From NCBI GenBank assembly GCA_017458195.1, contig JAFTGI010000102.1, positions 13,556-77,555 on the forward strand: a DNA stretch of 64,000 nucleotides, given 5' to 3'. Every line of letters begins with the position of its first letter. The stretch's first letter is position 1. This document shows, in pieces, positions 14,005 through 42,827 of this stretch. A program made the translations under genes and the position numbers. This DNA is from Prevotella sp. (lineage in GTDB: Bacteria > Bacteroidota > Bacteroidia > Bacteroidales > Bacteroidaceae). The notes under the pieces are model-generated. The model was not told where the DNA came from. It saw nothing but the letters and a program-made list of their open reading frames with translations, and did no database searches.

Positions 14005-15045
14005 ATGACGGTCGACAACTCCTTCTTTGCCGCAAAGCTGCTCGGCTGGTTCCGCGAGAACGGGCGTGAACTGCCCTGGCGCGGGACAAAGGATCCCTAT
14101 GCCATCTGGCTCTCGGAGATCATCCTGCAGCAGACGCAGGTCAGGCAGGGCTGGGACTACTGGCTGCGGTTCATGCGGCGCTGGCCGACGGTCGAGGCAC
14201 TGGCTGCGGCCACCGAGGACGAAGTGCTGCGCATGTGGCAGGGGCTGGGCTACTATTCGCGAGCCCGCAATCTTCACTTTGCTGCCCGTCAGATTGTTGA
14301 GATGGGCGGCTTTCCCACGACTTATGAAGAAATAAAAAAGCTGAAGGGCGTCGGCGACTATACGGCTGCGGCCATCGGCTCGATAGCCTTCGGACTGCCC
14401 GTGGCTGTGGTCGACGGCAATGTCTATCGCCTGCTCAGCCGTCATTTCGGCATTGCCACGCCCATCAACACGACGCAGGGCAAGCGCGAGTTCACGGCCC
14501 TGGCCCAGGCGTTGCTGCCCGGGAGCGAGGCCTCCGCCTACAATCAGGCGCTGATGGATTTCGGAGCAACCGTGTGCACGCCCCAGTCGCCCCGTTGTCC
14601 GGAGTGCCCGTTGCAGGCCTCATGCGTAGCCTTTGCCGAGGGCAGGGTGGGGCAGTTGCCCGTGAAGGAGCGCAAACTGCAGGTCAAGGAGCGCCGCATG
14701 GCCTATGTCTATATCAGGTATGAAGGCCAGACGGCCCTTCGCCGCCGTGGTGCCGGTGACATCTGGCAGGGGCTGTGGGAACCCTTTCTTTTAATTGATA
14801 ATGGACAATTGACAATTGACAATGATGCTAATTATCAATTGTCAATTATCAATTGTCAATTGCTCAAGCAGCATGTTCGCCACGTGCTGACTCACCGCGT
14901 CATTCTTTGCGATTTTTATCTTTGGGAGCCCCGGGAGCGTCCCCATTTGCCGGACGCTTACGTCTGGGTCGACGAGACCGACGTTGACCAGTACGCCCTT
15001 CCCCGTCTTGTTGAATTGTTGTTAGAGGCGCTTCCGCAACGCTGA
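14005..15045 (+). CDS. mutY: A/G-specific adenine glycosylase MutY, with an in-frame repeat insertion
   Basis: LPWR..DPY.IWLSEIILQQT, WQGLGYYSRARN, VVDGNV, Fe-S motif CTPQSPRCPECPLQASC. Confidence 0.95.
   Translation: MTVDNSFFAAKLLGWFRENGRELPWRGTKDPYAIWLSEIILQQTQVRQGWDYWLRFMRRWPTVEALAAATEDEVLRMWQGLGYYSRARNLHFAARQIVEMGGFPTTYEEIKKLKGVGDYTAAAIGSIAFGLPVAVVDGNVYRLLSRHFGIATPINTTQGKREFTALAQALLPGSEASAYNQALMDFGATVCTPQSPRCPECPLQASCVAFAEGRVGQLPVKERKLQVKERRMAYVYIRYEGQTALRRRGAGDIWQGLWEPFLLIDNGQLTIDNDANYQLSIINCQLLKQHVRHVLTHRVILCDFYLWEPRERPHLPDAYVWVDETDVDQYALPRLVELLLEALPQR
14793..14861. repeat. Heptamer-repeat hairpin in-frame in mutY
   Basis: AATTGAT AATGGAC AATTGAC AATTGAC...AATTATC AATTGTC AATTATC AATTGTC AATT; encodes IDNGQLTIDNDANYQLSIINCQL. 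Confidence 0.9.
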
Positions 15046-16126
15046 GCTGTCCCTTGTCGCGGCGGATGATGTACTTCTGATAGTAGGTCAGCAGCAGCGT
15101 CGTCATGGGCAGCGCTATAATCATGCCGAGCATACCGAGCAGCGAGCCCCAGATGGAGAGCGAGAGCAGGATGATGGCCGAGTTGAGGCCCGTCACCTTG
15201 CCCATGATCTTAGGCACGAGGAAAGTGTCCTGAATCGTCTGCACGATGGCGAAGACGGCCAGTGCCAGCAGCAGGATGACCCAGAAGTTCTGTCCCGTGT
15301 CGGCCGCCTTGACGATGGCCAGCAGGATGGTCGGGATGAAGCCGACGGTCTGCAGATAGGGTACCATGTTGAGCAGTCCGATGAACATGCCGAGGCCGAC
15401 GGCCATGGGGAAGTCGATGATGAGGAAGCCGATGCTGAACAGCACGCCGACGCAGAAGGCCACGAGGCCCTGTCCGCGGAAGTATTTGTTCATGCCCTCC
15501 TCGACGTCGCTGACCAGCTGCACGGCGAAGGGCCTGATGCTGTGGGGCAGCAGCGACACCCAGCCCTTCGAGAAGTCCTCGTAGTCGAGCAGGATGAAGA
15601 GCGTGTAGAGCAGGATCATCGTCAGCGAGAACAGACTGCCGACGACGCTGATAGACTGCGAGATGACGCTCCACACCTTCGGCACGGTGGCCTTGATGCT
15701 GTCGATGAAGCCGTCCTGAGTGACCAGCTTCTTCACCTCGTCGGCCGTGAAGTGCTCGTGGATGAACTGCTGGATGCGCTGCGGAATGTTGCTCATCGTG
15801 GCGTCGTTGGAGATATAGTCGATGAGCATGTCCTTGACGCGAAGGCCCTCCTCGACCATGGGCGGAATCATGAGCATGAGCACCCCCGTGGCCACGACGC
15901 CGACGACGATGAACGTCGACAGGATGGCCACGATACGATACTTCATGTGGCAGCGATACTGGAAAAACCTGACCATCGGGAACAGCAGGTAGCTGATGAG
16001 CCAGGCCACGAAGAAGGGCAGCAGCACACTGCTCAGCCGGCCCAGCAGCCAGAGCACGGCTACGGCCACGGCGGCCACGCAGATGCCGCGAATGAAAGTG
16101 TCGAAGGTGATAGGTTTACGTTCCAT
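14900..16126 (-). CDS. AI-2E family transporter
   Basis: MERKPITFD start, YFRGQ, GLLNMVPYL, PKIMGKVTGL motifs; multiple transmembrane segments. Confidence 0.9.
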   Translation of the reverse strand: MERKPITFDTFIRGICVAAVAVAVLWLLGRLSSVLLPFFVAWLISYLLFPMVRFFQYRCHMKYRIVAILSTFIVVGVVATGVLMLMIPPMVEEGLRVKDMLIDYISNDATMSNIPQRIQQFIHEHFTADEVKKLVTQDGFIDSIKATVPKVWSVISQSISVVGSLFSLTMILLYTLFILLDYEDFSKGWVSLLPHSIRPFAVQLVSDVEEGMNKYFRGQGLVAFCVGVLFSIGFLIIDFPMAVGLGMFIGLLNMVPYLQTVGFIPTILLAIVKAADTGQNFWVILLLALAVFAIVQTIQDTFLVPKIMGKVTGLNSAIILLSLSIWGSLLGMLGMIIALPMTTLLLTYYQKYIIRRDKGQLSVAEAPLTTIQQDGEGRTGQRRSRRPRRKRPANGDAPGAPKDKNRKE

Positions 16127-16153
16127 ATTTCTCCTTTGATTGTTTTTGTGGGA

Positions 16154-16213
16154 CAAAGGTACGAAATAATTATGAATTAAGAATTAAGATTTAAGAATTA
16201 TTTTGTACCTTTG
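16154..16213. promoter_or_regulatory. Back-to-back Bacteroidetes -7 promoter boxes separated by heptamer repeats
   Basis: CAAAGGTA...TACCTTTG with TGAATTA AGAATTA AGATTTA AGAATTA between them. Confidence 0.7.
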
Positions 16214-16221
16214 CATTCGCA

Positions 16222-16779
16222 ATGCCGATGCTTGAACTCAACGAAGTGCTGCTCAGCGGCGAGGAGCGTACGCTCTCGCTGATGGCCGAGGCGGGACAGA
16301 CGACCTGTCTCGTCGGGGGCACGCGTCGGCGCCGCCAGCGCTGGCTGCTGGCCATGCTGGGGCTGGAGCCCGTGCAGGTGGGCTATATCAGCGTCGACGG
16401 CGAGCCGCTCAACCGGGCGACAGCCGGAGCGCTGCGGGCCCTGATGGGCTACGTGCCCGACGGGCTGCGTACTGAGGGCCAGGTGGTCAGCTATGAACCG
16501 CCGACGGTGCAGGATGTCTTTCAGCTTCGTGCCAACCGCCATCTGCCTATCTCCAACGGTCTGCTGGCTGAGGAGATGCGGCGCACGGGTCTGCCGGCCG
16601 ACGAGGCTCGATGGCTGGCGGTGGCCGTGCTCTTGGGGCGCCCCATCCTGCTGGTCGACCATCCCTCGGCCGCCGCTGCCGACTATCTGCGCCTTCAGGC
16701 CCGCGAAGGACACACTGTCGTCTTTGCTACTGACGACGAAGTCCTTTGGCGCACTGCCGACAAAGTGATTGAAATTTAG
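16222..16779 (+). CDS. Degenerate ABC ATPase-like protein (FetA/YbbL-like)
   Basis: G.ISVDGEPL, MGYVP and RPILLVDHP resemble an ABC fold, but Walker A and the signature motif are not recognisable. Confidence 0.6.
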   Translation: MPMLELNEVLLSGEERTLSLMAEAGQTTCLVGGTRRRRQRWLLAMLGLEPVQVGYISVDGEPLNRATAGALRALMGYVPDGLRTEGQVVSYEPPTVQDVFQLRANRHLPISNGLLAEEMRRTGLPADEARWLAVAVLLGRPILLVDHPSAAAADYLRLQAREGHTVVFATDDEVLWRTADKVIEI

Positions 16780-16783
16780 AATT

Positions 16784-16816
16784 TAATGTTCAATGTTCAA
16801 TATTCAATGTTCAATG
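16784..16816. repeat. AATGTTC heptamer array (single arm)
   Basis: AATGTTC AATGTTC AATATTC AATGTTC AATG between the two ABC-like genes. Confidence 0.85.
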
Positions 16817-16818
16817 AA

Positions 16819-17532
16819 ATGAATGTTTGGGGAGCCGTGCTGACGGGCGTGTTGCTGTTCGTCGCGGTGGCTCTGTTTTGGCTGATTGACCGCAAGACGT
16901 TCCGGCTGATGGGCCGCGCAGGGCTGCTGGCCCTGGGACAGCTGCTCTTCGTGGGCGGCTATGTGTGGGCCTTGCAGCAGTCGGGCAGCGTCTGGATCCA
17001 CCTGCTGTGGCTCGTGGCCATGGCCGTGGCTGCCACCGGACTGACGCTTCGCCGGGCTGCCGTGGCGACAAAAGAGCGTGTCATGGCCCTCTCAGCGAGC
17101 CTCCTGATCGGGGTGGGGGTGCTGGCCGGCTGCGTGGTGCTGTGCGTGCCGGGCCGCCTGTTCGTGCCCGTCGTGGGCGTGCTCATGGGCCAGCTGATGA
17201 CGTCGGCCTCGCGCACATTGACGGTCTATGAGGGCAGCAAGCTCCACACCGAGGCCCACATCCGCTATCTGCTGGCCAACGGCGCGACGCGCCTGGAATC
17301 GCTCATACCCAGCATCCGCCGGGCGCTGCGTGCTGCCGTGCTGCCGCAGCTGACCACGATGGCGTCGCCCCTGGTGGTGGCCATGCCCGCCTTGCTGTGC
17401 GGCATGCTGATGGGGGGCGCCCCGGTGCCGGTCGCCGTGCTGACGACCATCCTCATGATGGCCGCTGCGATGGCCGCCTCGGTGCTGACCGCTGTGCTCA
17501 CCATCTTGTTCTTGGAATTTATTGAAAATTGA
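16819..17532 (+). CDS. FetB/YbbM (UPF0014)-like ABC permease
   Basis: GQLLFVG, YLLANGATRLES, RRALRAAVLP, AMPALLCGMLMGG. Start placed at MNVWG because the upstream Met codons lie in the repeat. Confidence 0.75.
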   Translation: MNVWGAVLTGVLLFVAVALFWLIDRKTFRLMGRAGLLALGQLLFVGGYVWALQQSGSVWIHLLWLVAMAVAATGLTLRRAAVATKERVMALSASLLIGVGVLAGCVVLCVPGRLFVPVVGVLMGQLMTSASRTLTVYEGSKLHTEAHIRYLLANGATRLESLIPSIRRALRAAVLPQLTTMASPLVVAMPALLCGMLMGGAPVPVAVLTTILMMAAAMAASVLTAVLTILFLEFIEN

Positions 17533-17608
17533 GGATTGAAAATTTTTTTCTTATCGATTTGCTGTTGAAAATAATTATAGTAAGTTAAACTTAATCGTAA
17601 AATTCGCT

Positions 17609-18295
17609 ATGAACAGAATCAAAGAATCAGTAATTCTGGCCCTGGGCATCGTCCTGCTGGGCTGGTTAGTCAAGTGTGGCATCAACGATTTTGCCAACAA
17701 GGACCGGCACGTCACCGTGAAGGGACTGGCCGAGCGCGAGGTGCCTGCCGACAAGGTGACGTGGAGCATCAGCACCAAGGAGACGGGCAACGACCTGCCC
17801 ACGCTCTATGAGCGCATCAACGTGCAGACGGGAAAGATACGGTCGTTCCTCGTGACCAACGGGCTCGACGCTGACGAGATCACCGTCAACGCGCCCACCG
17901 TCACCGACCTTGAGGCCCGCGAATGGGGCGACAACCAGAAGTCGTTCCGCTATATCGTCACGGCCGCCATCACCGTGGCCACGGGCAAGGTGGATCTGGT
18001 GAACAAGGCCATCTTCCGCCAGGGCGAGCTGCTCAAGCAGGGCGTGGCCATCGAGGGCAGCTATCCACTGTACGACTATGCGTCGTTCCAGCAGATGAAG
18101 CCCGAGATGATGGAGGAGGCCATCAAGAACGCTCAGAAGACGGCCGAGCAGTTTGCCGAGGCCAGCGACTCGAAGCTGGGCAAGATCCAGACCGCCGGTC
18201 AGGGCCAGTTCGAGATTGACGACCGCGACGAGAACACGCCTCACATCAAGAAGCTGCGCGTCGTGACCACCATCACCTATCAGCTCAACGACTGA
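17609..18295 (+). CDS. SIMPL (DUF541) domain protein
   Basis: N-terminal anchor, [38 protein letters not shown]. Confidence 0.85.
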
Positions 18296-18311
18296 GGCTG
18301 AAAAAAGAACT

Positions 18312-18418
18312 GTATAAAAAAACGTTCTGATTCCGTACATTGGCTTTGTACCAATCGTACACGACCGATGTACGAAACGTACATGACCGATGTACGGAAT
18401 CAGAACGATTTTTTATAC
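18312..18418. repeat. Inverted-repeat element with internal 22-bp GTAC tandem units between convergent genes; probable bidirectional terminator
   Basis: GTATAAAAAAACGTTCTGATTCCGTACA ... TGTACGGAATCAGAACGATTTTTTATAC. Confidence 0.8.
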
Positions 18419-18438
18419 GTTCGCTTTCGGAATTTTTT

Positions 18439-19806
18439 TTATTGAACTTCGGCCAGGAGGAATCGCTTCAGGTCGTCGAAGTTGCCGGTCATGGCGACGC
18501 TCTGCTTCTCGCCCTGCATGAAGGCCTGCAGGCGCTCGGGGATGGGCAGGTCGATGCCCAGAATCTCGTCCACCTTTTCCTTGAACTTCGCCGGATGGGC
18601 CGTCTCGCAGAAGATGCCCACCTCGCCGGGCTGCAGCTGCTCCTCGAGGGCGCGGTAGCCGCAGGCGCCGTGGGGGTCGAGGATGTAGCCCGTCTCGGCG
18701 TAGCACTGGCGCATGGTCTCGCGGATCTGGTCGTCGGTGTAGGTGGCTCCGCTGATGAGGCTCGTGATGCGCTCGTGGCTGCCACCGTAGAGGTCGAGTA
18801 TGCGTGCGAAGTTCGACGGGTCGCCCACGTCCATGGCGTTGGCCAGCGTCTGCTTCGAGGGCTTCGGCTCGTAGCGGCCCGTCTGCAGGTAGTTGTAGAA
18901 GACGTCGTTGGCGTTGTTGGCCGCGATGAACCGCTTCACGGGCAGGCCCATCTCATGTGCGAACAGGGCGGCGCAGAGATTGCCGAAGTTGCCGCTGGGC
19001 ACGCAGATGACAGGGGTGGGCTTTGTTCTTGCCACTGCATTAAAATAATAGAAGGCCTGAGGCAGGAAGCGGGCCACGTTGATCGAGTTGGCCGACGTCA
19101 GCTGCATGCGCTCGTTCAGTTCCTCGTCCATGAAGGCCTGCTTCACCAGCCGCTGACAGTCGTCGAACACGCCGTCGACCTCGATGGCCGTGATGTTCTG
19201 GCCCAGCGTCGTGAACTGACACTCCTGGATGGGGCTGACCTTCCCCTTCGGATAGAGCACATAGACGTGGATGCCCTCCACGCCGAGGAATCCGTTGGCC
19301 ACGGCCGAACCCGTGTCGCCCGACGTGGCCACGAGCACGTTGACCGTTGAGCATTGAGCATTGAACATTGAACATTGACCATTAGGCTGCACTTTGCTCT
19401 CATCCGCATGGGAATGGTCAATGTTCAATGTTGAATGGTCAATGAAGTGGCGAAGCAGACGAGCCATGAAGCGGGCGCCCACGTCCTTGAAGGCCAGCGT
19501 GGGTCCATGAAACAGCTCCAGGGTGTAGATATTTTCTTTCACGCGGACTACGGGGCAGTCGAACCGCAGGGTGTCGTAGACAAGGTCCTGCAGACCGTCG
19601 AGGTCGATGTCGTCGCCAAAGAAGGCGCTCGCCACGTTGAAGGCGATGTCCTGGAAGCGCATTGTGGGCATGTCGTCGAAGAAAGCCTTCGGCAGACGGT
19701 GAATTTCTTCGGGCATGTAGAGCCCGCGGTCCTCGGCCAGTCCCTTGATGACGGCCTTGCGCAGGTCGGCCATGGGAGCCTCATGGTTGGTGCTGTAGTA
19801 TTTCAT
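18439..19806 (-). CDS. thrC: Threonine synthase, with an in-frame repeat insertion
   Basis: MKYYSTN, GLAEDRGLYMP, ELFHGPTLAFKD, VATSGDTGSA, VPSGNFGN, ETAHPAKF. Confidence 0.96.
   Translation of the reverse strand: MKYYSTNHEAPMADLRKAVIKGLAEDRGLYMPEEIHRLPKAFFDDMPTMRFQDIAFNVASAFFGDDIDLDGLQDLVYDTLRFDCPVVRVKENIYTLELFHGPTLAFKDVGARFMARLLRHFIDHSTLNIDHSHADESKVQPNGQCSMFNAQCSTVNVLVATSGDTGSAVANGFLGVEGIHVYVLYPKGKVSPIQECQFTTLGQNITAIEVDGVFDDCQRLVKQAFMDEELNERMQLTSANSINVARFLPQAFYYFNAVARTKPTPVICVPSGNFGNLCAALFAHEMGLPVKRFIAANNANDVFYNYLQTGRYEPKPSKQTLANAMDVGDPSNFARILDLYGGSHERITSLISGATYTDDQIRETMRQCYAETGYILDPHGACGYRALEEQLQPGEVGIFCETAHPAKFKEKVDEILGIDLPIPERLQAFMQGEKQSVAMTGNFDDLKRFLLAEVQ
19340..19444. repeat. Heptamer-repeat hairpin in-frame in thrC
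   Basis: TTGAGCA/TTGAACA arm and AATGGTC/AATGTTC arm; encodes IDHSTLNIDHSH...NGQCSMFNAQCST. Confidence 0.9.
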
Positions 19807-20023
19807 TGTGGCAATGCTTTTGTTATCAACTGCTATGCAAAGGTACGAATTATTTGCTAAACAGATACGCGAAGGGCCCAATTTAATTTTTTTTAAGGCG
19901 AATGTGCACAATGTTGCACCAGAATGCCGCATTTTGTCAAGTCAATGCACGATTGTGCAAAGCCTCTTTCAGAACTTTTTCGTAATTTTGCAGCCGGAAA
20001 TAACTATAAAAAACGATTGCATT

Positions 20024-24464: not shown

Positions 24465-24530
24465 ACCACGGATTACGCGGATTAAACGGATTCAAAATAA
24501 AAAATCCGTTTAATCCGCGTAATCCGTGGT
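24465..24530. repeat. Perfect 28-bp-stem hairpin made of 9-nt repeats, between convergent genes
   Basis: ACCACGGATTACGCGGATTAAACGGATT-loop-AATCCGTTTAATCCGCGTAATCCGTGGT. Confidence 0.92.
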
Positions 24531-28203: not shown

Positions 28204-28231
28204 GCTTGCGTTTCGTTTTTGTTTCGCGCTG

Positions 28232-28293
28232 CAAAGGTACAAATAAATTATGAATTATGAGTGTTGAGTTATGAATTATTTTTCGTACCTTTG
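28232..28293. promoter_or_regulatory. Back-to-back -7 promoter boxes separated by heptamer repeats
   Basis: CAAAGGTA...TACCTTTG with TGAATTA TGAGTGT TGAGTTA TGAATTA between them. Confidence 0.7.
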
Positions 28294-28301
28294 CCGACGA
28301 T

Positions 28302-30074
28302 ATGATTAACGAATACCAATTACGCGTGTTGCCGCAGGTGGCTGCTCAGAGCGACAGCCTGCGCCGATACATCGCTGACGAGCAGGGACTGGCTTACGGC
28401 CAGATCAAGGGCGTGCGCATCCTGAAGCGCTCGATTGACGCCCGCCAGCGCACGATTTTCGTGAACCTGAAAGTGCGTGTCTACGTCGGCGAGGAGCCGC
28501 AGGACGACGAATTCGAGCCCATCGTGTATCGCGACGTGAGCGACCGTCCGCAGGTCATCGTCGTCGGTGCCGGCCCGGGCGGCCTGTTCGCCGCGCTGCG
28601 ACTGATTGAGCTGGGCTACAGGCCCGTCGTGCTGGAGCGCGGCAAGGACGTGCACGAGCGCAAGAAGGACCTGGCCAACATCACACGCACGCAGCAGGTG
28701 GCCCCCGAGAGCAACTACTGCTTCGGCGAGGGTGGGGCAGGGGCCTACTCCGACGGCAAGCTCTACACGAGAAGCAAGAAGCGTGGCAACACGGACAAGA
28801 TCCTGCGCGTGTTCTGTCAGCACGGGGCCTCGACCAACATCCTGGCCGACGCCCATCCGCACATCGGTACCGACCGTCTGCCGCAGGTCATCGAGGCCAT
28901 GCGCAATACTATAATAAGGTGTGGCGGCGAGGTGCACTTCCAGACGAAAATGACAAGGCTTATCATTGACCATTCACCATTGACCATTGACCATTCACCA
29001 TTGACCATTGACCATTCACCATTGACCATTGACCATTCACCATTGACCATTGACTATTATAGCGGAGCGAAGGTCATTGGCGTGCAGGCGCAGCAAATGT
29101 TCAATGTTCAATGTTCAATGTTCAATGAAAAAGAATTTCGCGGTCCCGTCATCCTGGCCACGGGCCATTCGGCGCGCGACGTCTACCGCTACCTCGCGGC
29201 GTCGGGCATTGAGATTGAGCCGAAGGGCATCGCCGTGGGCGTGCGACTGGAGCATCCGTCGGCCCTGATCGACCAGATTCAGTATCACCGCCGCGAGGGG
29301 CGCGGCCAGTGGCTGCCCGCCGCCGAATACTCGTTCGTCACTCAGGTGGAGGCCCGTGGCGTCTACTCGTTCTGCATGTGCCCCGGTGGCTTCGTCATTC
29401 CCGCCGCCACGGGCCCCGAGCAGATCGTGGTCAACGGCATGAGCCCCGCCAGCCGCGGCACGCAGTGGAGCAACTCGGGCATGGTGGTCGAGGTGAGGCC
29501 GGAAGACATTTTAAGTGAAAAGGGAAAAGTGAAAAGTGAAAAATTTGCTACTGCTGCAGAATCGTCCTGCGGAGCGGTAGCAAATTCTTCACTTTTCACT
29601 TTTCATTCTTCACTCCAAGTTCTGGCCTTCCAGGAGGAGCTGGAGCGCCTGTGCTGGCAGCAGGGCAACAGGAAGCAGACGGCCCCGGCACAGCGCATGG
29701 CCGACTTCGTCAACGGGCGGCTCAGCTTCGACCTGCCGCAGAGCTCCTATGCGCCCGGCCTCGTGTCGTCGCCGCTGCACTTCTGGTTGCCGAAGCCTAT
29801 CGTCACGCGCCTGCAGCAGGGCTTCAAGACGTTCGGCCGTCAGGCTCACGGCTTCCTGACCAACGAGGCGGTGATGATAGCCGTCGAGACGCGCACGTCG
29901 AGCCCCGTGCGCATCCTGCGCGACCCCGCGACGCTGCAGCACGTGCGCCTCGAGGGCCTGTTCCCCTGCGGCGAGGGGGCTGGCTATGCCGGCGGCATCG
30001 TCTCGGCCGGCGTCGACGGTGAGCGCTGCGCCGAAATGTGTGCGCAATACGTCAGTTCTCTGCAAGAACTGTGA
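28302..30074 (+). CDS. NAD(P)/FAD-dependent oxidoreductase with repeat insertions
   Basis: VVGAGPGG, FGEGGAGAYSDGKL, HPHIGTD, ATGHSARD, SFCMCPGG, GEGAGYAGGIVSA. Confidence 0.9.
   Translation: MINEYQLRVLPQVAAQSDSLRRYIADEQGLAYGQIKGVRILKRSIDARQRTIFVNLKVRVYVGEEPQDDEFEPIVYRDVSDRPQVIVVGAGPGGLFAALRLIELGYRPVVLERGKDVHERKKDLANITRTQQVAPESNYCFGEGGAGAYSDGKLYTRSKKRGNTDKILRVFCQHGASTNILADAHPHIGTDRLPQVIEAMRNTIIRCGGEVHFQTKMTRLIIDHSPLTIDHSPLTIDHSPLTIDHSPLTIDYYSGAKVIGVQAQQMFNVQCSMFNEKEFRGPVILATGHSARDVYRYLAASGIEIEPKGIAVGVRLEHPSALIDQIQYHRREGRGQWLPAAEYSFVTQVEARGVYSFCMCPGGFVIPAATGPEQIVVNGMSPASRGTQWSNSGMVVEVRPEDILSEKGKVKSEKFATAAESSCGAVANSSLFTFHSSLQVLAFQEELERLCWQQGNRKQTAPAQRMADFVNGRLSFDLPQSSYAPGLVSSPLHFWLPKPIVTRLQQGFKTFGRQAHGFLTNEAVMIAVETRTSSPVRILRDPATLQHVRLEGLFPCGEGAGYAGGIVSAGVDGERCAEMCAQYVSSLQEL
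28964..29127. repeat. 13 CATTGAC/CATTCAC heptamers plus a complementary AATGTTC arm, in-frame
   Basis: 28964-29054 is 13x7 nt with a 21-nt super-period (IDHSPLT x4); 29096-29127 is AATGTTC x4 plus AATG (MFNVQCSMFN). Confidence 0.95.
29513..29614. repeat. AAGTGAA/TTTCACT heptamer hairpin, in-frame
   Basis: Encodes SEKGKVKSEKFATAAESSCGAVANSSLFTFHSSL; inner stem AATTTGCTAC / GTAGCAAATT. Confidence 0.92.
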
Positions 30075-30089: not shown

Positions 30090-30147
30090 AAAACGGTGCT
30101 TTTTGAAGGTAATATACCCCTATATTACTTTCGAAAAGCACCGTTTT
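30090..30147. repeat. Solo hairpin matching the core of the 198-bp MITE; probable terminator
   Basis: AAAACGGTGCTTTTTGAAGGTAATATA-CCCC-TATATTACTTTCGAAAAGCACCGTTTT, 16 bp after the stop codon. Confidence 0.85.
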
Positions 30148-30316: not shown

Positions 30317-30937
30317 ATGAATAAGGAGGAGAAATTTGTCATCACCATCAGCCGACAGTTCGGCACGGGTGGACACGAGATCGGAGCCGAGCTGGCACGC
30401 CGGCTCGACGTGAAGCTGCTCGATAAGCAGATTTTGAACGAGGTGGCCCGCAAGTTCTGCGCCGTCGAGGACGCCGTGGAGCGCATCGAGGCCCGCAACC
30501 CGCTGTGGCGCGACGACTTCACGCAGTTCTATCGCTCCTATATGGCCGGGGCGGAGTATAACGGACAGGAGCACGACCAGACGTCGCGCCAGCTCTTTGA
30601 GGCGCAGGCCGAGGCCATCCGTCGCATTGCCGACGAGGAGTCGTGCGTCATCATCGGCCGTTGTGGATTCCACATCTTCCGCGACCACCCCAACGCCCTG
30701 AAAATCTTCATCCATGCCGACGACGACTGCCGCAAGCGCCGCATAGCCACGCGCTACGACATCTCGGAGCCGGACGCCGCCGCCATGATCGTCGACAACG
30801 ACTACAGCCGCGAGCTCTACACGAAGACCTTCACGGGCAGCGACTGGCAGGACGCGCGCAACTACGACGTGACGCTCAACGTGCGCAAGTTTGGCGTTAA
30901 CGGTGCCGTCGACTTCCTGATGAAATGTATTGAATAA
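30317..30937 (+). CDS. Cytidylate kinase-like family protein
   Basis: VITISRQFGTGGHEIG, ESCVIIGRC, KIFIHA, NYD. Confidence 0.85.
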   Translation: MNKEEKFVITISRQFGTGGHEIGAELARRLDVKLLDKQILNEVARKFCAVEDAVERIEARNPLWRDDFTQFYRSYMAGAEYNGQEHDQTSRQLFEAQAEAIRRIADEESCVIIGRCGFHIFRDHPNALKIFIHADDDCRKRRIATRYDISEPDAAAMIVDNDYSRELYTKTFTGSDWQDARNYDVTLNVRKFGVNGAVDFLMKCIE

Positions 30938-31054
30938 ATTAGAAATGAGAAATTAGAAATGAGAAATGTAAATGAAAAATGCAGAAATGCTGCACAGCCC
31001 ATTTAATCATTTCTTCATTTACATTTCTCATTTCCCATTTCTCATTTCTCATTT
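30936..31054. repeat. Intergenic AAATGAG/CTCATTT heptamer hairpin
   Basis: AAATTAG AAATGAG AAATTAG AAATGAG ... CATTTCT CATTTCC CATTTCT CATTTCT CATTT. Confidence 0.9.
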
Positions 31055-31070
31055 GATAAAAAAAGAATAA

Positions 31071-32527: not shown

Positions 32528-32552
32528 CGGCATGTGATAAATGTTGTTAAAT

Positions 32553-32607: not shown

Positions 32608-32628
32608 CGTCTTGAAATTGAATATATA

Positions 32629-34079: not shown

Positions 34080-34100
34080 AATGAATAATAAGATATTGGT

Positions 34101-36650
34101 ATGAAACACAGAAGATTAGTGATTGCTGTGATGGGCCTGGTGCTCATGGCCGTGCTGACGGCCTGCACGTCGGCTGAGGGCGACGCTGAGGCGTATGTCG
34201 ACTTCCTCTATAAGTATATGCCGCTGCCCGATTCAACGGATTATTCGCGAGAGTTCTACGAGGAGAACGTGCGCCTCTCGCTGCAGGCGCGGGCGGAGAT
34301 GCCCTGGGGACGGACGGTGCCCGAGCGCGAGTTCCGCCACTTCGTAGTGCCCGTCCGCGTGAACAATGAGGCGCTCGACTCGGCCCGCTCGGTCTTCTAT
34401 CGTGAACTGAAGCCGCGCGTGGAGCACCTGTCGATGCAGGACGCCATTCTCGAGGTGAACCACTGGTGCCATGAGCACGTGACCTACCAGCCGACGGACG
34501 GGCGCACGCTCTCGCCGCTGGCCACGATGCGCACGGCCTACGGACGCTGCGGCGAGGAGTCGACCTTCCTCGTGGCGGCCCTGCGCTCGGTGGGCATCCC
34601 CGCCCGGCAGGTCTATACGCCCCGCTGGGCCCACACCGACGACAACCACGCCTGGGTCGAGGCCTGGGCCGACGGCCGGTGGTACTTCCTCGGTGCCTGC
34701 GAGCCCGAGCCTGTCCTGAACCTGGGGTGGTTCAACGAGAGTGCCTCGCGCGGCATGCTCATGCACACCAAGGTCTTCGGCGACTACGACGGTCCCGAGG
34801 AGGTGATGAGCCGCACGGCCTGCTACACCGAGATCAACGTCATCGACAACTATGCCCCCACGTCGCAAGTCACCGTTGTGGTGACCGATTCCGCCGGTCG
34901 CCCCCAGTCCGATGCCCTCGTTGAGTTTAAACTTTACAACTACGCCGAGTTCTACACTGTGGCAAAGAAAACGACCGACGCCCAGGGCCGCGCCAGTCTC
35001 ACCGCCGGCCATGGCGACATGCTCGTCTGGGTGACGAAGGACGGACAGATGGGCCTCCAGCAAGTCACCTTCGATGCTGATAAAGAAGTGACCGTACCTC
35101 TCACCTCTCACTTCTCACTTCTCACTTCTAAAGAATACGACCTCGTCCCACCGCCAGTCAGTGCCTCGGCCCCTGAGGTCACGGCTGAACAGCGTGCGGA
35201 GAACAACCGCCGGCTGGCGCTCGAGGACAGTCAGCGCTCGGCTTATGAGGCCACGATGCCCGACCAGATGCTGGCCATCGTCTACGGCGACCGCTCCTGG
35301 CGCGGCAACTACGCCACGCTGGAGACCTTCCGCTATGCCACTCTGGGCGACGTCATGGCTGACAGGCTGATTGACCAGCTGGCAGAGAAGGACCTGCACG
35401 ACGTCGACTACGACGTGCTGTGGGACAGCTACGCCAACCGCCAGGACAGCGACGACCCCATCTACCTGAAATATGTGCTCTGCCCCCGCATCGAGTTGGA
35501 GCGGCTGACGCCCTACAAGTCGACGCTGAGCATGCTGCTAGGCTTCATCAAGTCGCCCGAGGAGCTGGCTGCCTGGACGCGCGACAACATCACCATCGTC
35601 GCCGACCGCAATCCGCAGCGGTTGCGCATGAATCCCACCAGCGTGCTGCGCTACCGCCGCACCGACGCGCTGGGCCGCGACATCTTCTTCGTCGCAGCCG
35701 CCCGTTCGCTCGGCTTCCCCGCCCGCATCAACGAGGTAAACGGCAAGACGCAGTATTATAAGGATGGTCAGTGGGTGGATGCTCAGGCCCCCCTTTCTTG
35801 CGTCCCTACGGTAGCAAGCGACCAAAGGTCGAGCGCGTCCCCCGAGGGGGACACTATAGAAGCCCCCTCGGGGGCCGTAGGGGGGGCTTCTTCAACTCTC
35901 ACTTTGCGTTATAATCCCGTTCCACACTACGACGATCCGAAGTATTACATCCACTTCACGCTGAGCAAGATCGACGAGAACGGTCAGGCGCAGCTGATGA
36001 CCTTCCCCGAGGACGCCACATGGAAGAATACGTTTGCCCGCGGCGTGGAGCTTGAGAACGGCAACTATATCCTCACGACGGGCACGCGCCTGGCCAGCGG
36101 CAAGGTGCTGGCCCGCATACAGTCCTTCACCATCAATGGTCCTACGACGCTGACCTTCACCATGCGCGAGGACCCCGAGGAACCGCAGGTCATCGGCTCG
36201 CTCAACGCGGAAAATCTATTTATTCCCCTCTCCGATGGGAGAGAGGTTGGGGATGAGGCTTCTTCCATCCTTGCAACTACTGGTCGCGGCTTCTACGTGC
36301 TTGGCATCGTGGCGCCCAATCAGGAGCCGACGAACCATGCCCTGCGCGACATCTCGGCTTATAAGGAAGAACTGGAGAAGTGGGGGCGCCCGATGGTCTT
36401 GCTGTTCGAGAGTGCCGACGATGCCCAGCGATTTAACTTCGCCGAGTTCGCACAGTTGCCACAGACCGCAGTCTGGGGCGTCGATCCCGACGGCACCATC
36501 CTCAGCGAGGCCCGCACGGAGATGAAGCTCCCGTCGTCGTCGCTGCCCGTCTTCATGGTCTGCGACACGTTCAACCGCGTCATCTTCGTCTCGCAGGGCT
36601 ACACCATCAACCTTGGTGAACAGCTCATGAAGGTAGTGAGGCAGCTCTAA
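34101..36650 (+). CDS. Transglutaminase-like domain lipoprotein
   Basis: Lipobox LTAC; GRCGEES, RSVGIPARQV, NHAWVEAW. Confidence 0.85.
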   Translation: MKHRRLVIAVMGLVLMAVLTACTSAEGDAEAYVDFLYKYMPLPDSTDYSREFYEENVRLSLQARAEMPWGRTVPEREFRHFVVPVRVNNEALDSARSVFYRELKPRVEHLSMQDAILEVNHWCHEHVTYQPTDGRTLSPLATMRTAYGRCGEESTFLVAALRSVGIPARQVYTPRWAHTDDNHAWVEAWADGRWYFLGACEPEPVLNLGWFNESASRGMLMHTKVFGDYDGPEEVMSRTACYTEINVIDNYAPTSQVTVVVTDSAGRPQSDALVEFKLYNYAEFYTVAKKTTDAQGRASLTAGHGDMLVWVTKDGQMGLQQVTFDADKEVTVPLTSHFSLLTSKEYDLVPPPVSASAPEVTAEQRAENNRRLALEDSQRSAYEATMPDQMLAIVYGDRSWRGNYATLETFRYATLGDVMADRLIDQLAEKDLHDVDYDVLWDSYANRQDSDDPIYLKYVLCPRIELERLTPYKSTLSMLLGFIKSPEELAAWTRDNITIVADRNPQRLRMNPTSVLRYRRTDALGRDIFFVAAARSLGFPARINEVNGKTQYYKDGQWVDAQAPLSCVPTVASDQRSSASPEGDTIEAPSGAVGGASSTLTLRYNPVPHYDDPKYYIHFTLSKIDENGQAQLMTFPEDATWKNTFARGVELENGNYILTTGTRLASGKVLARIQSFTINGPTTLTFTMREDPEEPQVIGSLNAENLFIPLSDGREVGDEASSILATTGRGFYVLGIVAPNQEPTNHALRDISAYKEELEKWGRPMVLLFESADDAQRFNFAEFAQLPQTAVWGVDPDGTILSEARTEMKLPSSSLPVFMVCDTFNRVIFVSQGYTINLGEQLMKVVRQL
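35787..35888. repeat. GC-rich palindromic insertion in-frame
   Basis: CCCCCGAGGGGG...CCCCCTCGGGGG inside outer GCCCCCC...GGGGGGC; encodes APLSCVPTVASDQRSSASPEGDTIEAPSGAVGGA. Confidence 0.75.
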
Positions 36651-37205: not shown

Positions 37206-37873
37206 GATTCCAAAGATGATAATATTTGTCTGACGACGGCGGCGTCGGTCACGCCGGTGCCGCCGGAGCACGAGCCGTGGATCTCAGTGGTGCCCACCTG
37301 GTCGAGAATCAGGCGGGCATTATTTGTGTTCACGCCTCCGCCGGGCATGATGATGAGGCGCCCGTCGCTGAGGTCGCGCAGCTGCCGCAGCAGGGCGATG
37401 CCCTCCTCGGCGCGCGGCTGCTGGCCGGAGGTCAGGATGCGGCGGCAGCCCAGCGCGATGATCTGCTCAAGGGCCACGAGCGGCTGGCGACAGACGTCGA
37501 AGGCGCGATGGAACGTTACGGGCCTGTCCTCGGCCGCCTGCATCAGGCACGCCATGGCCGCCAGGTCGATGTCGCCCTCAGCGGTCAGTGTGCCCACGAC
37601 GATGCCGTCGGCGTAGGGCAGGGCAGCCCGGATGTCGCGCTCCATTAGGCGCACCTCCAGGCGGCTGTAAACAAAGTTCCCTTCACGTGGCCGCACCAGC
37701 ACGTGGATGGTCAGCGCGGGGTAGAGCTCGTGCACCAGACTGAGCAGTCCTATCGACGGTGTCAGTCCGTCGAGCGACAGCGCCGAGCATAGTTCTATGC
37801 GCTGTGCGCCGCCCTCCACGGCCGCTGCCACACTCTGCAGCGAACCGCAGCAAACTTCAAGTACATTCATCAT
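37202..37873 (-). CDS. cutC: Copper homeostasis protein CutC
   Basis: LEVC, RIELCSAL..DGLTPS, TFHRAFD, RILTSGQ, IMPGGGV. Confidence 0.93.
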   Translation of the reverse strand: MMNVLEVCCGSLQSVAAAVEGGAQRIELCSALSLDGLTPSIGLLSLVHELYPALTIHVLVRPREGNFVYSRLEVRLMERDIRAALPYADGIVVGTLTAEGDIDLAAMACLMQAAEDRPVTFHRAFDVCRQPLVALEQIIALGCRRILTSGQQPRAEEGIALLRQLRDLSDGRLIIMPGGGVNTNNARLILDQVGTTEIHGSCSGGTGVTDAAVVRQILSSLES

Positions 37874-39192: not shown

Positions 39193-39305
39193 GTCCTTTT
39201 GTTTTTCGTTGTTAGTCAATTACGCCACAAAGATACAATTTTTTCGGCAAACGGGAGCCGGAAGGACAAAAAAATCTTTGGTGGTTTCGCTACTCTTTAG
39301 ATATT

Positions 39306-39589
39306 TTTCTCATTCGTGGCGACCGCACCATTGACCAGATGGTGCAGGCAGCCCGCTCAGGAAAACAGAATATTGTGGAAGGCTCGGCCGATGGAGTCAC
39401 TACCAGAAGCAACTGGAAGATACGTTCATCAAGGAGGGAGGCATCAGGGAGCGTATGACTGCAGCCCGTCTGGGCTACCGCACCAACCAGCGCGAGGAGA
39501 TAGCGCGGTTGAAGCAGGAACTGGACCGGGCCCGGCGGCGCATCGCCGAATTGGAAGCAAGGCTGGCAGAGAAAGAGAGGCAGGGATAG
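39306..39589 (+). pseudogene. Four-helix-bundle (23S rRNA IVP/Avd-like) protein with suffix domain; truncated and internally deleted
   Basis: FLIRGDRTIDQMVQAARSGKQNIVEGSADGVT, then a frame change near 39400 to YQKQLEDTFIKEGGIRERMTAARLGYR...EKERQG*; not in the ORF track. Confidence 0.8.
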
Positions 39590-39693
39590 TTTTTCTAGAT
39601 TGGCTAGATTTTCTAGTCTTACTAGTATATCTAGTCTGAATAGTATGTCTAGTCTGACTAGTATGTCTAGCCTTACTAGTATTTCTATCCCAG
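39586..39693. repeat. 12 x 9-nt CTAG-cored tandem repeat
   Basis: ATAGTTTTT CTAGATTGG CTAGATTTT CTAGTCTTA CTAGTATAT CTAGTCTGA ATAGTATGT CTAGTCTGA CTAGTATGT CTAGCCTTA CTAGTATTT CTATCCCAG. Confidence 0.92.
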
Positions 39694-39712
39694 CTAAGAA
39701 GAATCAATATCT

Positions 39713-39910
39713 GGCTCAGTCCTAAAAACTGGTTGCAGAAACTGTGGCTCTTTACTGGCAAATAAACGTCACTTTGATTACAAAGTGGTGCTTTTTGAAG
39801 GTAATATACCCCTATATTACTTTCGAGAAGGACCCCTTCTTGACTTGCGAAGAACCATCTCACCGATAGGGAAGGACCGATATTATTCAACCGGTTATTC
39901 AGACTGAGCC
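39713..39910 (+). mobile_element. 198-bp MITE, copy 1
   Basis: Terminal inverted repeats GGCTCAGTC...GACTGAGCC; flanks CAATATCT / CAATATAT (7/8 target duplication). Confidence 0.88.
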
Positions 39911-39931
39911 CAATATATGTCGACAAGGTAT

Positions 39932-40400
39932 CTATTGAACGACGACCTTGCGGCGGCTGCTGACGTAGAGGCCCCTGCGGAGCGCCTGTGATGCTGACGC
40001 GAGGGGCGACACCCGGCGGCCGGAGAGGTCGTAGAGAGGGTGGGGGGCACTCCCGGCGTCCCAGCCGGAGCGGATGTCGCCGTAGTAGCTCTGGTGATGG
40101 CCGCGGGCCCAGGTGATGCGCTCCTGACCGTCGGGCAGGGTCTCGCAGTGGTCGGGCTGCGGCTGCAGGATGATGTGGCGGAAGCCGGGCGCCTGCTCGT
40201 CGTAGCCGATGCCGAGCATGTAGCGGAACATCCACTCGCCGACACCAGGGCACGAGGATGCCGGCGTCGCTCCAGGCACTGCCGCCGAATCCGGCATAGC
40301 CCGTGGGAGCCGTGTCGGGGAAGGCACCGTCGTCGCGCTGTCCGTCGCGCATGTCCTGCATCCATTTGCGGTAGAAGGTCTCGAGGTTGGCGAAGTACAT
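39932..40400 (-). pseudogene. GH78 alpha-L-rhamnosidase remnant with multiple internal deletions and a T9SS tail
   Basis: FYRKWMQDMRDGQRDDGAFPDTAP...AWSDAGILVPW joined out of frame to VGEWMFRYMLGI..PGFRHIILQPQP..SYYGDIRSGW, then LYDLSGRRV..RGLYV..RKVVVQ*. Confidence 0.8.
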
Positions 40401-40486
40401 GGCCGATGTACAAAATTCAAACCCTTACTTTGACACATCTGGAAATCCGCAATATCCGTGGTAAAATAAATCTTCAAGAACGTGAG

Positions 40487-42106
40487 TTATTTTGTTCTGG
40501 TTTGGGGCATCGGCTCGACGAGCGTCAAGTCGATATAGTCAATGTTTGGGGCGAAGCCGACGGGCTGGCCGAGGCGGATGGTGTTGTAGCCGGGATGGAG
40601 CGTCACGTCGAGCTCGAGACTGCTCCAGGCGGTGTCCCATGCGCCGCTGTTAAGGTTGTCGAAGAAGCCCAGGTCTTTGCCATTGACGTGAACCTGCAGG
40701 GAGCGGTCCTCGCCCGAGGCATAGCGGACGGTCAGGCGGTAGCGGCCGCCGGTGGTGCTGTAGACGGCGGGCCACTCCATATAGTTGCCCGCGAGATTGC
40801 CCAGCCAGCCTATGTACCAGCCCTGGTCGGCCGATGCTGCCTCCATGGGGCGGGCGTTGGGGAAACCGTTGAGTTCCTGATACTTGCAGGCCCAGGCCTC
40901 CTCGGCCTGATAGCGTGTGCGGTCGGTGCGGGCACCGCTGATGAAGTAGGCCTGTGAGCCGTGGGCGGGAATCGTGACGGTGATGCGCTGCCCGTCGGCG
41001 TAAGCAGCATCCTGACCGGTCAGGCAGTCATGCAGCCGGACAGCGCCCTTCATTTCGAGGGCGGGCAGGCTGAGGTCTATCTGGCGCTGGCTGTCGCTCA
41101 GGTTCATGACGACGACGGCCCGCTTCGGTCCGTGCAGCTGTTCCATGTCCTTGGCCACGACATAGACATCGCCGGAGCGCTGGACGACCGGTGCACCGAG
41201 TCCGAGCGGATCCTGGTTCATGGCAATGAGATCCTTGTTGCAGAGCAGCTTGAGCGACGCCTCGGGAATCTTGGTCATGTCGCAGCCGACGAGCAGCGGC
41301 GACGAGGCGATGCACCAGTAGGCCATGTGGGTGACCTCCTCGTCGTGGCTCAGCGTGCGGCCTATCTCGAGCATGTCCATGTCGTTGTAGTGGCCGGCGC
41401 CGGTGTAGGCCTGAATGTAGAGGTTCTCCTTGATGATGTCGCGGACGGAGGCCCAGCCACACCAGATGTCGCCCGTGGTGCGCCAGGAGTCGGCGATGTC
41501 GCTGATCCACGTGCCGGGATAGGCCCACCGGCAGACGTTGAACGTGATTTTCTTGCCCAGCCGTGCCTCCTGGCGGCGGATGGCCTCGCTGATGCGGGTG
41601 TACTGCGTGCGCTCATTGAGGCTCAGGTGGTTGCCGCCGCAATAGTCGACCTTGATGAAGTCGAAGTTCCAGTCGGCGAAGTAGAGCTGGCAGTCGTCGT
41701 CCTCATGGCCGTAGAAACCCACGTTGAGGCCCCAGGCATGATGGTTGCCGGAGCCGCAGGTGTTGTCGCCCGCATCGCTGTAGATGCCGGCCTTGAGCCC
41801 CAGGCGGTGGATATAGTCGGTCAGGCTGCGCATGCCGCCGGGGAAGCGCTCCTTGTTGAGCCGGAGCTGACCGTCGCGGCCGCGGCCGTCCCAGTAGCCG
41901 TCGTCGATGTTGACATACTTATAGCCGGCGTCAGCCAGTCCCGTGCTGACCATGGCGTCGGCCTGACTCTTGATGAGACTCTCGCTGATGTTGAGTGCGA
42001 AGGTGTTCCATGAGCTCCAGCCCATCGTCGGCGGGTTGAAGTCTTGTGCGTGGGTTGCGCCGGCCGTCATAGCAGCCAGGGCAATCAGAAGTTGTCTTGC
42101 TTTCAT
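40487..42106 (-). CDS. Alpha-galactosidase (GH27) with C-terminal CBM35/CBM6-like module
   Basis: PTMGWSSWN, NIDDGYW, FIKVDYC, SWRTTGDI, YNDMDMLEIG; APNIDYI carbohydrate-binding-module end. Confidence 0.92.
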   Translation of the reverse strand: MKARQLLIALAAMTAGATHAQDFNPPTMGWSSWNTFALNISESLIKSQADAMVSTGLADAGYKYVNIDDGYWDGRGRDGQLRLNKERFPGGMRSLTDYIHRLGLKAGIYSDAGDNTCGSGNHHAWGLNVGFYGHEDDDCQLYFADWNFDFIKVDYCGGNHLSLNERTQYTRISEAIRRQEARLGKKITFNVCRWAYPGTWISDIADSWRTTGDIWCGWASVRDIIKENLYIQAYTGAGHYNDMDMLEIGRTLSHDEEVTHMAYWCIASSPLLVGCDMTKIPEASLKLLCNKDLIAMNQDPLGLGAPVVQRSGDVYVVAKDMEQLHGPKRAVVVMNLSDSQRQIDLSLPALEMKGAVRLHDCLTGQDAAYADGQRITVTIPAHGSQAYFISGARTDRTRYQAEEAWACKYQELNGFPNARPMEAASADQGWYIGWLGNLAGNYMEWPAVYSTTGGRYRLTVRYASGEDRSLQVHVNGKDLGFFDNLNSGAWDTAWSSLELDVTLHPGYNTIRLGQPVGFAPNIDYIDLTLVEPMPQTRTK

Positions 42107-42189
42107 ATGTTTGTAGGCTCTTGATTGTTTCCGTCTACAAAAGTAAACTTTTCTTTTAAATAAACGGAATAAATAATGGTCAAAAAAAA

Positions 42190-42218
42190 GCAGAAACGTG
42201 CCAAATACACGTTTCTGC
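42190..42218 (-). terminator. Intrinsic terminator of the oxidoreductase operon
   Basis: GCAGAAACGTG-loop-CACGTTTCTGC preceded by an A8 run (U tract on the minus strand). Confidence 0.7.
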
Positions 42219-42245
42219 CATTATTTGCGGGAATAAAACTTATCG

Positions 42246-42791
42246 TTACTTCACCTCCTGGATGATCTTGCCACCCTCCTCGAGGGCCTGCATGTTCAGG
42301 GGGATGAGGCCGTGGTGACGCTCGGGCAGGGTCTTCTTCAGAGCCTTTTCGACGCCGCCGAGGCCGACGACGGGACAAATCTTGAGCATGCCGCCCAGCA
42401 CGATCATGTTGAAGATCTTGCCGTTTTGCATCTCGGCAGCCTTGTCCATGGCGTCGATGCGATAGACGTGGATGTCCTTGCGCGTCGGCGGGTTGATGAT
42501 GCCATAGCTGTCGTAGATGAGAATGCCGCCCTCCTTCAGCTTCGGCTCGAACTTCTCGAGCGAGGGCTGGTTGAGCACGATGGCCACGTCATACTTCGAG
42601 AGGATGGGCGACGAGATGCGGTCGTCGCTCACGATCACCGTGACGTTGGCTGTACCGCCGCGCTGCTCGGGGCCATAGGCGGGCATCCATGTCACTTCCT
42701 TATCTTCCATCAGGCCTGAATAAGCCAGAATCTTTCCCATCGAGAGGACACCCTGACCACCAAAACCGGAAATAATTATCTCTTTTTTCAT
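42246..42791 (-). CDS. 2-oxoacid:ferredoxin oxidoreductase, gamma subunit
   Basis: SGFGGQGV, YGPEQRGG, NMIVLG. Confidence 0.92.
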   Translation of the reverse strand: MKKEIIISGFGGQGVLSMGKILAYSGLMEDKEVTWMPAYGPEQRGGTANVTVIVSDDRISSPILSKYDVAIVLNQPSLEKFEPKLKEGGILIYDSYGIINPPTRKDIHVYRIDAMDKAAEMQNGKIFNMIVLGGMLKICPVVGLGGVEKALKKTLPERHHGLIPLNMQALEEGGKIIQEVK

Positions 42792-42794
42792 CTT

Positions 42795-42824
42795 AATTGT
42801 CAATTTTCAATTATCAATTATCAA

Positions 42825-42827
<3 letters not shown>
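42795..42827. repeat. AATTATC/AATTGTC heptamer array within the operon
   Basis: AATTGTC AATTTTC AATTATC AATTATC AATTA; same unit as the mutY arm. Confidence 0.8.

Follow-up and report, generated by a model that had tools for sequence, protein, structure and literature searches.

The 64,000-nt stretch of Prevotella sp. DNA analysed here (contig JAFTGI010000102.1, forward-strand positions 13,556 to 77,555; hereafter the window) raises the question of what the tandem 7-nt repeats are that occur at ten of its loci, both between genes and in frame inside conserved genes, in part as two complementary arms. An initial annotation, made from the letters alone, had named these loci and attributed them to a mechanism that generates or spreads such repeats rather than to one transposon sequence. 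The idea that one shared mechanism, and not a single transposon sequence, underlies the family holds, in a form revised to take in a fixed arm polarity, relatives with periods of 8 and 9 nt, and a link to gene-bearing cassettes. The favoured explanation, with a probability of roughly 0.58, is that the gene-less hairpins are derivatives of cassettes that resemble the intervening sequences (IVS) of 23S rRNA and carry a PF05635 (23S-rRNA-IVS protein) gene, with arms varying by slippage and selection filtering the copies inside genes.

The genome is that of a rumen Prevotella, assembled from a metagenome (3.19 Mb, 238 contigs, 76% complete, 58% GC). Gene positions are those of the author's own crude codon-based open reading frame (ORF) caller and are an approximation.

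Period, unit and polarity of the arrays

In the whole genome, Tandem Repeats Finder (TRF) returned 488 rows of period 7, against 248 and 733 for periods 8 and 9; rows with at least four copies numbered 330 for period 7 and only 35 for period 9. A stricter lag detector found 136, 60 and 18 arrays of periods 7, 8 and 9, and 0 to 1 array at each remaining period in the 4-15 range. After merging, the genome-wide tandem and inverted-repeat scan gave 401 period-7 arrays (14.7 kb in total), which with the 0 to 1 array at periods 4-6 and 10-15 qualify as long simple-sequence repeats (LSSR; unit of 5-11 nt, above chance). Period 7 stood hugely above other periods, and the possibility that it is no more frequent than they are does not hold. 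The conserved period noted earlier is thus far over-represented; it is not exclusive, since related families of periods 8 and 9 exist. The period-8 family (AAAAAGGT / ACCTTTTT) comprises about 135 arrays genome-wide (for example C9:415-876, C214:14180-14350 and C64:17251-17369), some of them likewise in inverted pairs, with the A-rich arm first.

Array units were 28% GC, against 58% for the genome, and followed the consensus TGA-[A/G]-[A/C]-A-[T/G/A]. The TGA core was present in 302 of the 401 arrays, unit position 6 was A in 93% (a conserved A two bases upstream of TGA), and position 7 was C once only. Units do vary between loci, as had been said, but not arbitrarily: there is one consensus, A-N-T-G-A per 7 nt.

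All ten named loci were recovered by TRF as period-7 arrays. The features of these loci in the window are as follows.

14793..14862, plus strand: hairpin in mutY (residues 263-286, LIDNGQLTIDNDANYQLSIINCQL), with an AATTGAC-type arm, a 9-nt loop and an AATTGTC/AATTATC arm
16168..16200, no strand: solo array (AATTAAG) flanked by outward-facing CAAAGGTAC / GTACCTTTG motifs, in a divergent intergenic region
16785..16816, plus strand: solo array (AATGTTC) filling the spacer from the stop of ORF 16222-16779 to the ATG of the UPF0014 gene
19340..19444, minus strand: hairpin in thrC (residues 163-198, FIDHSTLNIDHSHADESKVQPNGQCSMFNAQCSTVN), with two arms
28246..28279, no strand: solo array (AATTATG) flanked by outward-facing GCAAAGGTAC / GTACCTTTGC motifs, upstream of the oxidoreductase gene
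28964..29058, plus strand: arm 1 of oxidoreductase site 1, 13.6 heptamers with a 21-nt super-period, read as IDHSPLT x4
29059..29095, plus strand: native coding segment between the site-1 arms, the GAKVIGVQA beta strand, aligning with GxxVxGVxA in all orthologs
29096..29127, plus strand: arm 2 of oxidoreductase site 1, AATGTTC x4.6, read as QMFNVQCSMFN
29513..29614, plus strand: hairpin of loop family 2 in the oxidoreductase (residues 404-438), (AAGTGAA)n, ATTTGCTACTGC..GCGGTAGCAAAT, (TTCACTT)n
30936..31054, no strand: intergenic hairpin of loop family 3, AAATGAG arms and TTAAATGGGCTG core, between cytidylate-kinase-like and TerB/DnaJ genes
35099..35129, plus strand: solo array of the TCA type (TCTCACT x4.4), lying in frame at residues 333-343 (PLTSHFSLLTS) of a transglutaminase-like protein
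42795..42827, minus strand: solo array spanning the spacer of two co-directional oxidoreductase subunit genes

Two complementary arms had been noted at five of the loci, and five inverted pairs were found. Four of them had folding energies much lower than those of shuffled controls (-27 to -56 kcal/mol, z -6.2 to -12.0): the hairpins in mutY (-27 kcal/mol, z -6.5) and thrC (-41.8 kcal/mol, z -6.2), the second hairpin of the oxidoreductase (TRF arms 29513-29542 and 29588-29614; -55.8 kcal/mol, z -10.2), and the intergenic hairpin (TRF arms 30936-30989 and 31007-31054; -51.2 kcal/mol, z -12.0). The oxidoreductase site-1 pair folded weakly (z -2.0).

Pairs of neighbouring arrays no more than 200 nt apart numbered 82 in the genome, 70 of them inverted. 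A TGA-type arm stood 5' and a TCA-type arm 3' in 65 pairs, and the opposite order occurred in 2 (binomial p 3e-17); the TGA-then-TCA order reads identically on either strand. Of 101 genomes of the genus, 18 contained the pattern of TGA arm, gap and TCA arm, and not one contained the opposite order. The polarity was kept even where both arms used different, non-complementary units.

These results bear on a purely in-place origin, by which slippage-expanded simple repeats became complementary via intrastrand template switching, with no mobile element and with PF05635 genes as mere frequent neighbours. Heptanucleotide repeats are, as far as PMC4679880 relays it, the most abundant class in most surveyed genomes, with a polymerase footprint proposed (Mrazek 2007 via PMC4679880), which would suit such an origin. 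The in-place origin is nevertheless judged improbable, as AT-rich units with one consensus in a 58% GC genome are not samples of local sequence, and a polarity that is absolute even in non-complementary pairs is not predicted by template switching alone.

PF05635 and PDDEXK_3 cassettes

The proposed derivation of the hairpins from cassettes draws on the arrays that bracket genes. The genome has eight PF05635 genes (hmmscan confirms the domain in three of the eight), and each of them has an inverted array pair at a distance of 10-60 nt, of period 7 at six loci and of period 8 at two (C9, C65). The IVS-like arrangement, a PF05635 ORF inside stem-forming complementary termini, was thus found in 8/8 cases here; among the other genus genomes sampled, a PF05635 gene lay between inverted period-7/8 arrays in 8/10. 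A PF05635 gene was enclosed by inverted pairs 300-600 nt apart at eight loci, and at one further locus the enclosed gene was for a PDDEXK_3 nuclease. Inverted arms stood on both sides of three of the genome's four PDDEXK_3 genes; of these, the one at C229:26517-26849 has ACGGATTAA arms, of the same type as the window hairpin at 24468-24528. The cassettes to which the hairpins are tied hold PF05635 four-helix-bundle genes, plus PDDEXK_3 genes for the class with 8/9-nt units. None of the element copies seen was located in rRNA.

Sequence outside the repeats also joined cassettes to gene-less hairpins. The cassette at C41:19280-19579 reads (AAGTGAA)n-ATTTGCTACCGC-gene-GCGGAAGCAAAT-(TTCACTT)n, and its junctions were identical at 21/23 and 33/38 positions to those of the gene-less hairpin at window 29513-29614, as compared with window 29505-29620. 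The junctions of the C183 cassette matched the loops of the C18 and C106 hairpins (AAGTGAG family) at 40/48, 36/40 and 43/48 positions. Such non-periodic junctions were shown to be common to cassettes and gene-less hairpins for loop families 2 and 4. Among 62 hairpin loops, 29 grouped into eight families beyond shuffled controls, with mostly unrelated host genes; the loop of the thrC hairpin, for instance, is related to that of the C179:627 hairpin in an unrelated gene. Identical non-periodic loops and junctions in unrelated genes and beside PF05635 genes are a further point against an origin in place.

The distribution of arrays was patchy. A four-unit ANTGA pattern was carried by 105 of the 151 genus genomes, with counts per genome between 0 and 378, and by 96 of the 201 from the order; a reversed control pattern was frequent in some genomes, which therefore hold other heptamer families. 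With the 151 genomes grouped by array count and tallies read from tables by hand, PF05635 was present in 37/39 array-rich and 21/46 array-free genomes (Fisher p 5e-7, an overstatement because the genomes are related and not independent). Only 2 of the 47 PF05635-negative genus genomes were array-rich.

According to the favoured explanation, the arrays would be the arms of a family of small stem-bracketed elements. A full-length copy would consist of a PF05635 four-helix-bundle gene of about 125 codons between inverted arrays of 7-nt (some 8-nt) units, TGA-type at the 5' side and its complement at the 3' side. Most copies would be gene-less, left between or inside genes as hairpins of 70-180 nt that presumably arose from cassettes by internal deletion. 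The elements would move or be copied between loci, perhaps with a role for the PF05635 protein, and resident arrays would lengthen and shorten by replication slippage. Solo arrays may be half-elements or independently expanded repeats.

A further rival is a system resembling REP-doublet hairpins (REPINs), moved by a Y1 HUH transposase of the IS200 or REP-associated tyrosine transposase (RAYT) type that would recognise the hairpins as single-stranded DNA. The genome has one PF01797 gene with 58-nt inverted repeats on its flanks, and Y1_Tnp was present in 25/39 array-rich and 18/46 array-free genomes (p 0.03). However, that gene is truncated and its flanking repeats are unrelated to the heptamers, so that no Y1 gene flanked by the same repeats was found in the genome; 14 array-rich genomes had no match and 18 array-free genomes had one; and REPINs are extragenic, whereas these elements are often intragenic. 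With a single truncated copy, unrelated flanking repeats and a weak genus-wide association, Y1/RAYT was rejected as the specific partner, and a Y1-driven system is considered very improbable.

The truncated Y1 gene (C182:3730-3972; L140:1474-1749) lies between type I restriction genes, and its 58-nt inverted repeats show 97% complementarity and are found twice on one side. Six of the eight bracketed PF05635 genes in other genus genomes, from six Prevotella species (L192, L193, L195, L197, L198, L200), shared a conserved location immediately 5' of a gene starting M(A/E)K(N/S)ISFT, and the arm units of these cassettes differed from species to species. The window hairpin at 24468-24528 has period-8/9 arms (ACGGATTAC GCGGATTAA ACGGATT and the complement) and stands between two convergent genes.

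Arrays inside and beside genes

Relative to random positions, arrays were less frequent inside coding sequences (CDS; 42% vs 83%) and more frequent at gene edges (33% vs 10%) and in intergenic DNA (24% vs 7%). Coding-like sequence on both sides was found for 120 arrays, and 32 hairpins lay wholly within predicted CDS, in mostly unrelated proteins. These 32 are absent from orthologs and have the form of in-frame palindromic insertions in conserved genes known from Rickettsia palindromic elements.

Solo arrays concentrated at gene boundaries, often right before the start codon. Among 152 solo non-CDS arrays, 82 had an in-frame ATG at -8 to +10 nt from the array end (21% for random positions), and after upstream stops the TGA strand was forward in 70 cases vs 16. 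In the window, the array at 16785..16816 belongs to this start-codon-abutting class, and that at 42795..42827 runs, on the coding strand, from the upstream stop codon (TAATTGATAATTGA...) to within a few bases of the downstream ATG.

This placement is what would be expected of elements selected at the RNA level, with solo arrays acting, ahead of start codons in a non-Shine-Dalgarno host, as leaders free of structure or as barriers with stops in all frames, paired arms as RNase III or termination stems, and spread as a secondary matter. The forward bias of TGA after stops, the co-variation of arms described below and the fact that IVS stems are RNase III substrates (PMC4990558) agree with it as well. 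It is weakened by an occurrence that is patchy even among close relatives (match counts range from 0 to 378), and by the roughly 30 hairpins in housekeeping genes, which cutting or termination would damage. A simple terminator scan flagged 17 sites vs 14.4 expected from shuffles, without picking out the hairpins as wholes; compared with an intrinsic terminator, a G+C-rich stem-loop and a T run, loop family 2 has a G+C-rich inner stem with TTTTCAC units after it. A scan of the window against Rfam at gathering thresholds matched no family. Selection on RNA is accordingly regarded as an unlikely primary explanation, on a par with the in-place origin.

For the cassette-derived elements, survivors inside CDS would be those whose length is a multiple of three and which leave one stop-free frame, to be read as extra surface loops. 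Such a filter would leave every third unit on the TGA-coding strand without TGA and hence a 21-nt super-period. Arrays with TGA on the coding strand were non-TGA at 48/48 in-frame unit positions, a count that is partly forced, and so partly circular, because open frames defined the class, vs 17/136 out-of-frame positions; the small number of out-of-frame losses means that the arrays are otherwise intact. The super-period at 28964-29058 arises because in-frame units lose TGA, the super-unit being CATTGAC CATTCAC CATTGAC (TRF period 21, 98% matches).

Alignment of MutY, ThrC and the oxidoreductase with orthologs showed the same loops to be empty or filled with different arrays, depending on species. 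ThrC, with best matches in rumen Prevotella and Xylanibacter genomes (70-79% identity), and MutY had one or two loops that tolerate inserts, unoccupied in most species and elsewhere filled by different arrays or hairpins. In the oxidoreductase, an FAD-dependent protein, both insert regions were absent or different in 25 relatives. That the in-gene repeats keep the frame and add peptides, and that new loops are being added to conserved enzymes, as the initial annotation had proposed, is borne out by inserted peptides missing from most orthologs and by loops that are mostly empty; orthologs carrying the same peptides without DNA periodicity were not the rule, the peptides being mostly absent. 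The AlphaFold model of the oxidoreductase gave no useful support (mean pLDDT 58; inserts below 50, and many native segments too).

Copy number and arm type both changed between relatives. A conspecific oxidoreductase allele (P0122) differed from the window protein (P0001) by one residue and by one IDHSPLT fewer, that is, one 21-nt super-unit, a copy-number change between close relatives of the kind that slippage produces; among relatives, IDHSPL(T/S) copies at site 1 ranged from 1.5 to 4. In the 60 closest database oxidoreductases (74-84% identity) both site-1 loops were usually occupied, by different repeat peptides, and the native strand GxxVIGVxA always lay between the arms. The two arms changed jointly (IDHSPLT/NGQCSMV, VHSSKS/TMNYEL, SGERGEV/LTSHLSPL). 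The nearest relatives (81-84% identity) were compared as proteins and DNA was compared in 29 genus genomes, where the arms of the orthologs were complementary and differed considerably in sequence, some being G+C-rich. Cognate site-1 arms paired best in 5/8 ortholog cases, and in a quick tree with the insert regions masked, different arm types were adjacent and a few percent apart.

C-terminal domains of the type IX secretion system (T9SS) type formed a second group of such sites. At least eight had arms flanking a conserved YDLQGR strand, and the arms replaced sequence and added no length. For these eight arm-pair hosts, TIGR04183 scored above the cut-off in one (25.3 bits vs 23), below it in three and without a match in four; a genome search with Pfam Por_Secre_tail gave sub-threshold matches only.

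Several of these results count against the derivation from cassettes. Native coding sequence lies between the arms at oxidoreductase site 1 (GAKVIGVQA) and in at least eight T9SS-type tails (YDLQGR), and arms around native sequence are therefore not the product of a single insertion. Arm types differ between very close relatives at orthologous sites while complementarity is kept, and because of this joint turnover simple vertical descent of one insertion is insufficient. Of the 62 loops, 33 were singletons; 21 array-free genomes have PF05635, the pattern used counting TGA-core heptamers only; and of the marks of miniature inverted-repeat transposable elements (MITEs), inverted arms are present and inspection of family members' flanks by eye showed no target-site duplication. 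The in-frame count is partly circular, as stated, and assignments to CDS depend on the crude ORF caller.

The first two of these points speak for the in-place origin, which would accommodate arms that flank native beta strands in the oxidoreductase and the tails, the replacement of sequence without lengthening in the tails, and arms that co-vary at the same site between species. The 21-nt slippage allele and the partnerless solo arms at P0003 and P0029 (oxidoreductase) and at G015 are further points in its favour. Template switching at quasi-palindromes, selection for RNA stems or activity of the cassette proteins could each contribute to the bracketing of native segments by arms, the joint switch of arm types, the polarity and the arrival of copies at new sites.

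A more speculative proposal, held to be rather unlikely, is that the PF05635 proteins, which are Avd-like, and, for the 8/9-nt class, the PD-(D/E)XK proteins are partners of a strand-polar mechanism that copies or writes complementary 7-8-nt arrays on either side of a short piece of DNA. If true, it would explain the arms around native gene segments and the joint turnover of arm types, and it would unite heptamer repeats (including the short tandemly repeated repetitive sequences, STRR, of cyanobacteria), 23S rRNA intervening sequences and in-frame palindromic insertions.

Known systems and further repeats of the window

The closest counterpart of the cassettes is the 23S rRNA IVS with an S23p ORF of Coxiella burnetii and Leptospira (PMC4990558), likewise a small insert with complementary stem termini and a PF05635 ORF inside a functional gene. 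The Coxiella IVS is described as selfish, with a 28-bp terminal stem, and is excised by RNase III, its origin and mobility being unexplained (PMC4990558); PF05635, a family that was first recognised in 23S rRNA intervening sequences, is related to Avd of diversity-generating retroelements (PMC10053308). Unlike the IVS, the Prevotella copies stand in protein-coding genes and intergenic DNA, their termini are tandem 7-8-nt arrays, most are without an ORF, and those in genes are predicted from sequence to be translated through rather than excised.

Tandem heptanucleotide repeats of the LSSR, STRR and TAACTGA kinds share with the arrays the 7-nt period, a TGA in the unit, positions upstream of starts, all-frame stops in forward copies and a patchy spread that includes Bacteroidetes (PMC4679880). 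In Beggiatoaceae and a few Bacteroidetes, TAACTGA repeats lie directly against start codons (PMC4679880), and STRR2 on the other strand is TGACCAA vs TGACCAT in Prevotella. The published cases are mostly solo and intergenic; polar inverted pairs, in-frame residence in enzymes and the PF05635 link are not described there. With MITEs and REPINs, the elements have in common short non-autonomous hairpins derived from or partnered with a gene-bearing element; they differ in that no transposase was identified, besides the points on duplications and Y1/RAYT given above.

Likening the repeats to Rickettsia palindromic elements and cyanobacterial STRR, as was done at the outset, was apt as an analogy and no more. 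The Rickettsia elements, reportedly described by Ogata and colleagues in 2000, are said to be dispersed palindromes of about 100-150 bp that lie in frame in conserved genes and are read as extra peptide. The Prevotella hairpins are alike in being dispersed palindromes in frame in conserved genes, in families that keep an open frame. They have no known sequence relationship to them and differ in their tandem heptamer arms of changing copy number, their gene-bearing forms and their Bacteroidota host. Literature searches on Prevotella heptamer or palindromic elements found no published description.

Heptamer repeats, S23p-bearing rRNA intervening sequences and in-frame palindromes have gone for decades without a mechanism and here seem to belong to a single system; the genus is abundant in the rumen, and some of its members are in culture. 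Concrete candidates for tests are the PF05635 and PDDEXK_3 proteins, RNase III and the arm polarity rule. Hundreds of repeats distort Prevotella gene calls, domain scores (as with the sub-threshold T9SS tails) and ortholog alignments, and a 7-nt repeat in an essential gene is a standing frameshift hazard.

The solo arrays at window 16140-16230 and 28225-28310 are framed by outward-facing CAAAGGTAC / GTACCTTTG motifs that resemble back-to-back promoter boxes; those flanking the 16168..16200 array are presumably Bacteroidota -7 boxes (TAnnTTTG). Judged from the letters, a change in copy number at either place could shift the spacing of two divergent candidate promoters. Just past the oxidoreductase stop, at window 30095-30142, there is a strong 20-pair stem-loop with a T run, a terminator candidate that is not built of heptamers.

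Repeats of longer period were also seen. A period-9/18 array (CTAGTCTGA / TCTAGTCTGACTAGTATG) occupies window 39587-39687, just after ORF 39316-39639, which had no Pfam match. Arrays of 21-22-nt units, each unit internally palindromic (e.g. GTACATGGGCGATGTAC, AAATCACACTGAGATTT), lie at window 4107-4190, 5395-5459 and 18347-18396, and some 39 arrays of period 22, with AAAAGCGGTACTTTTC among their units, occur in the genome.

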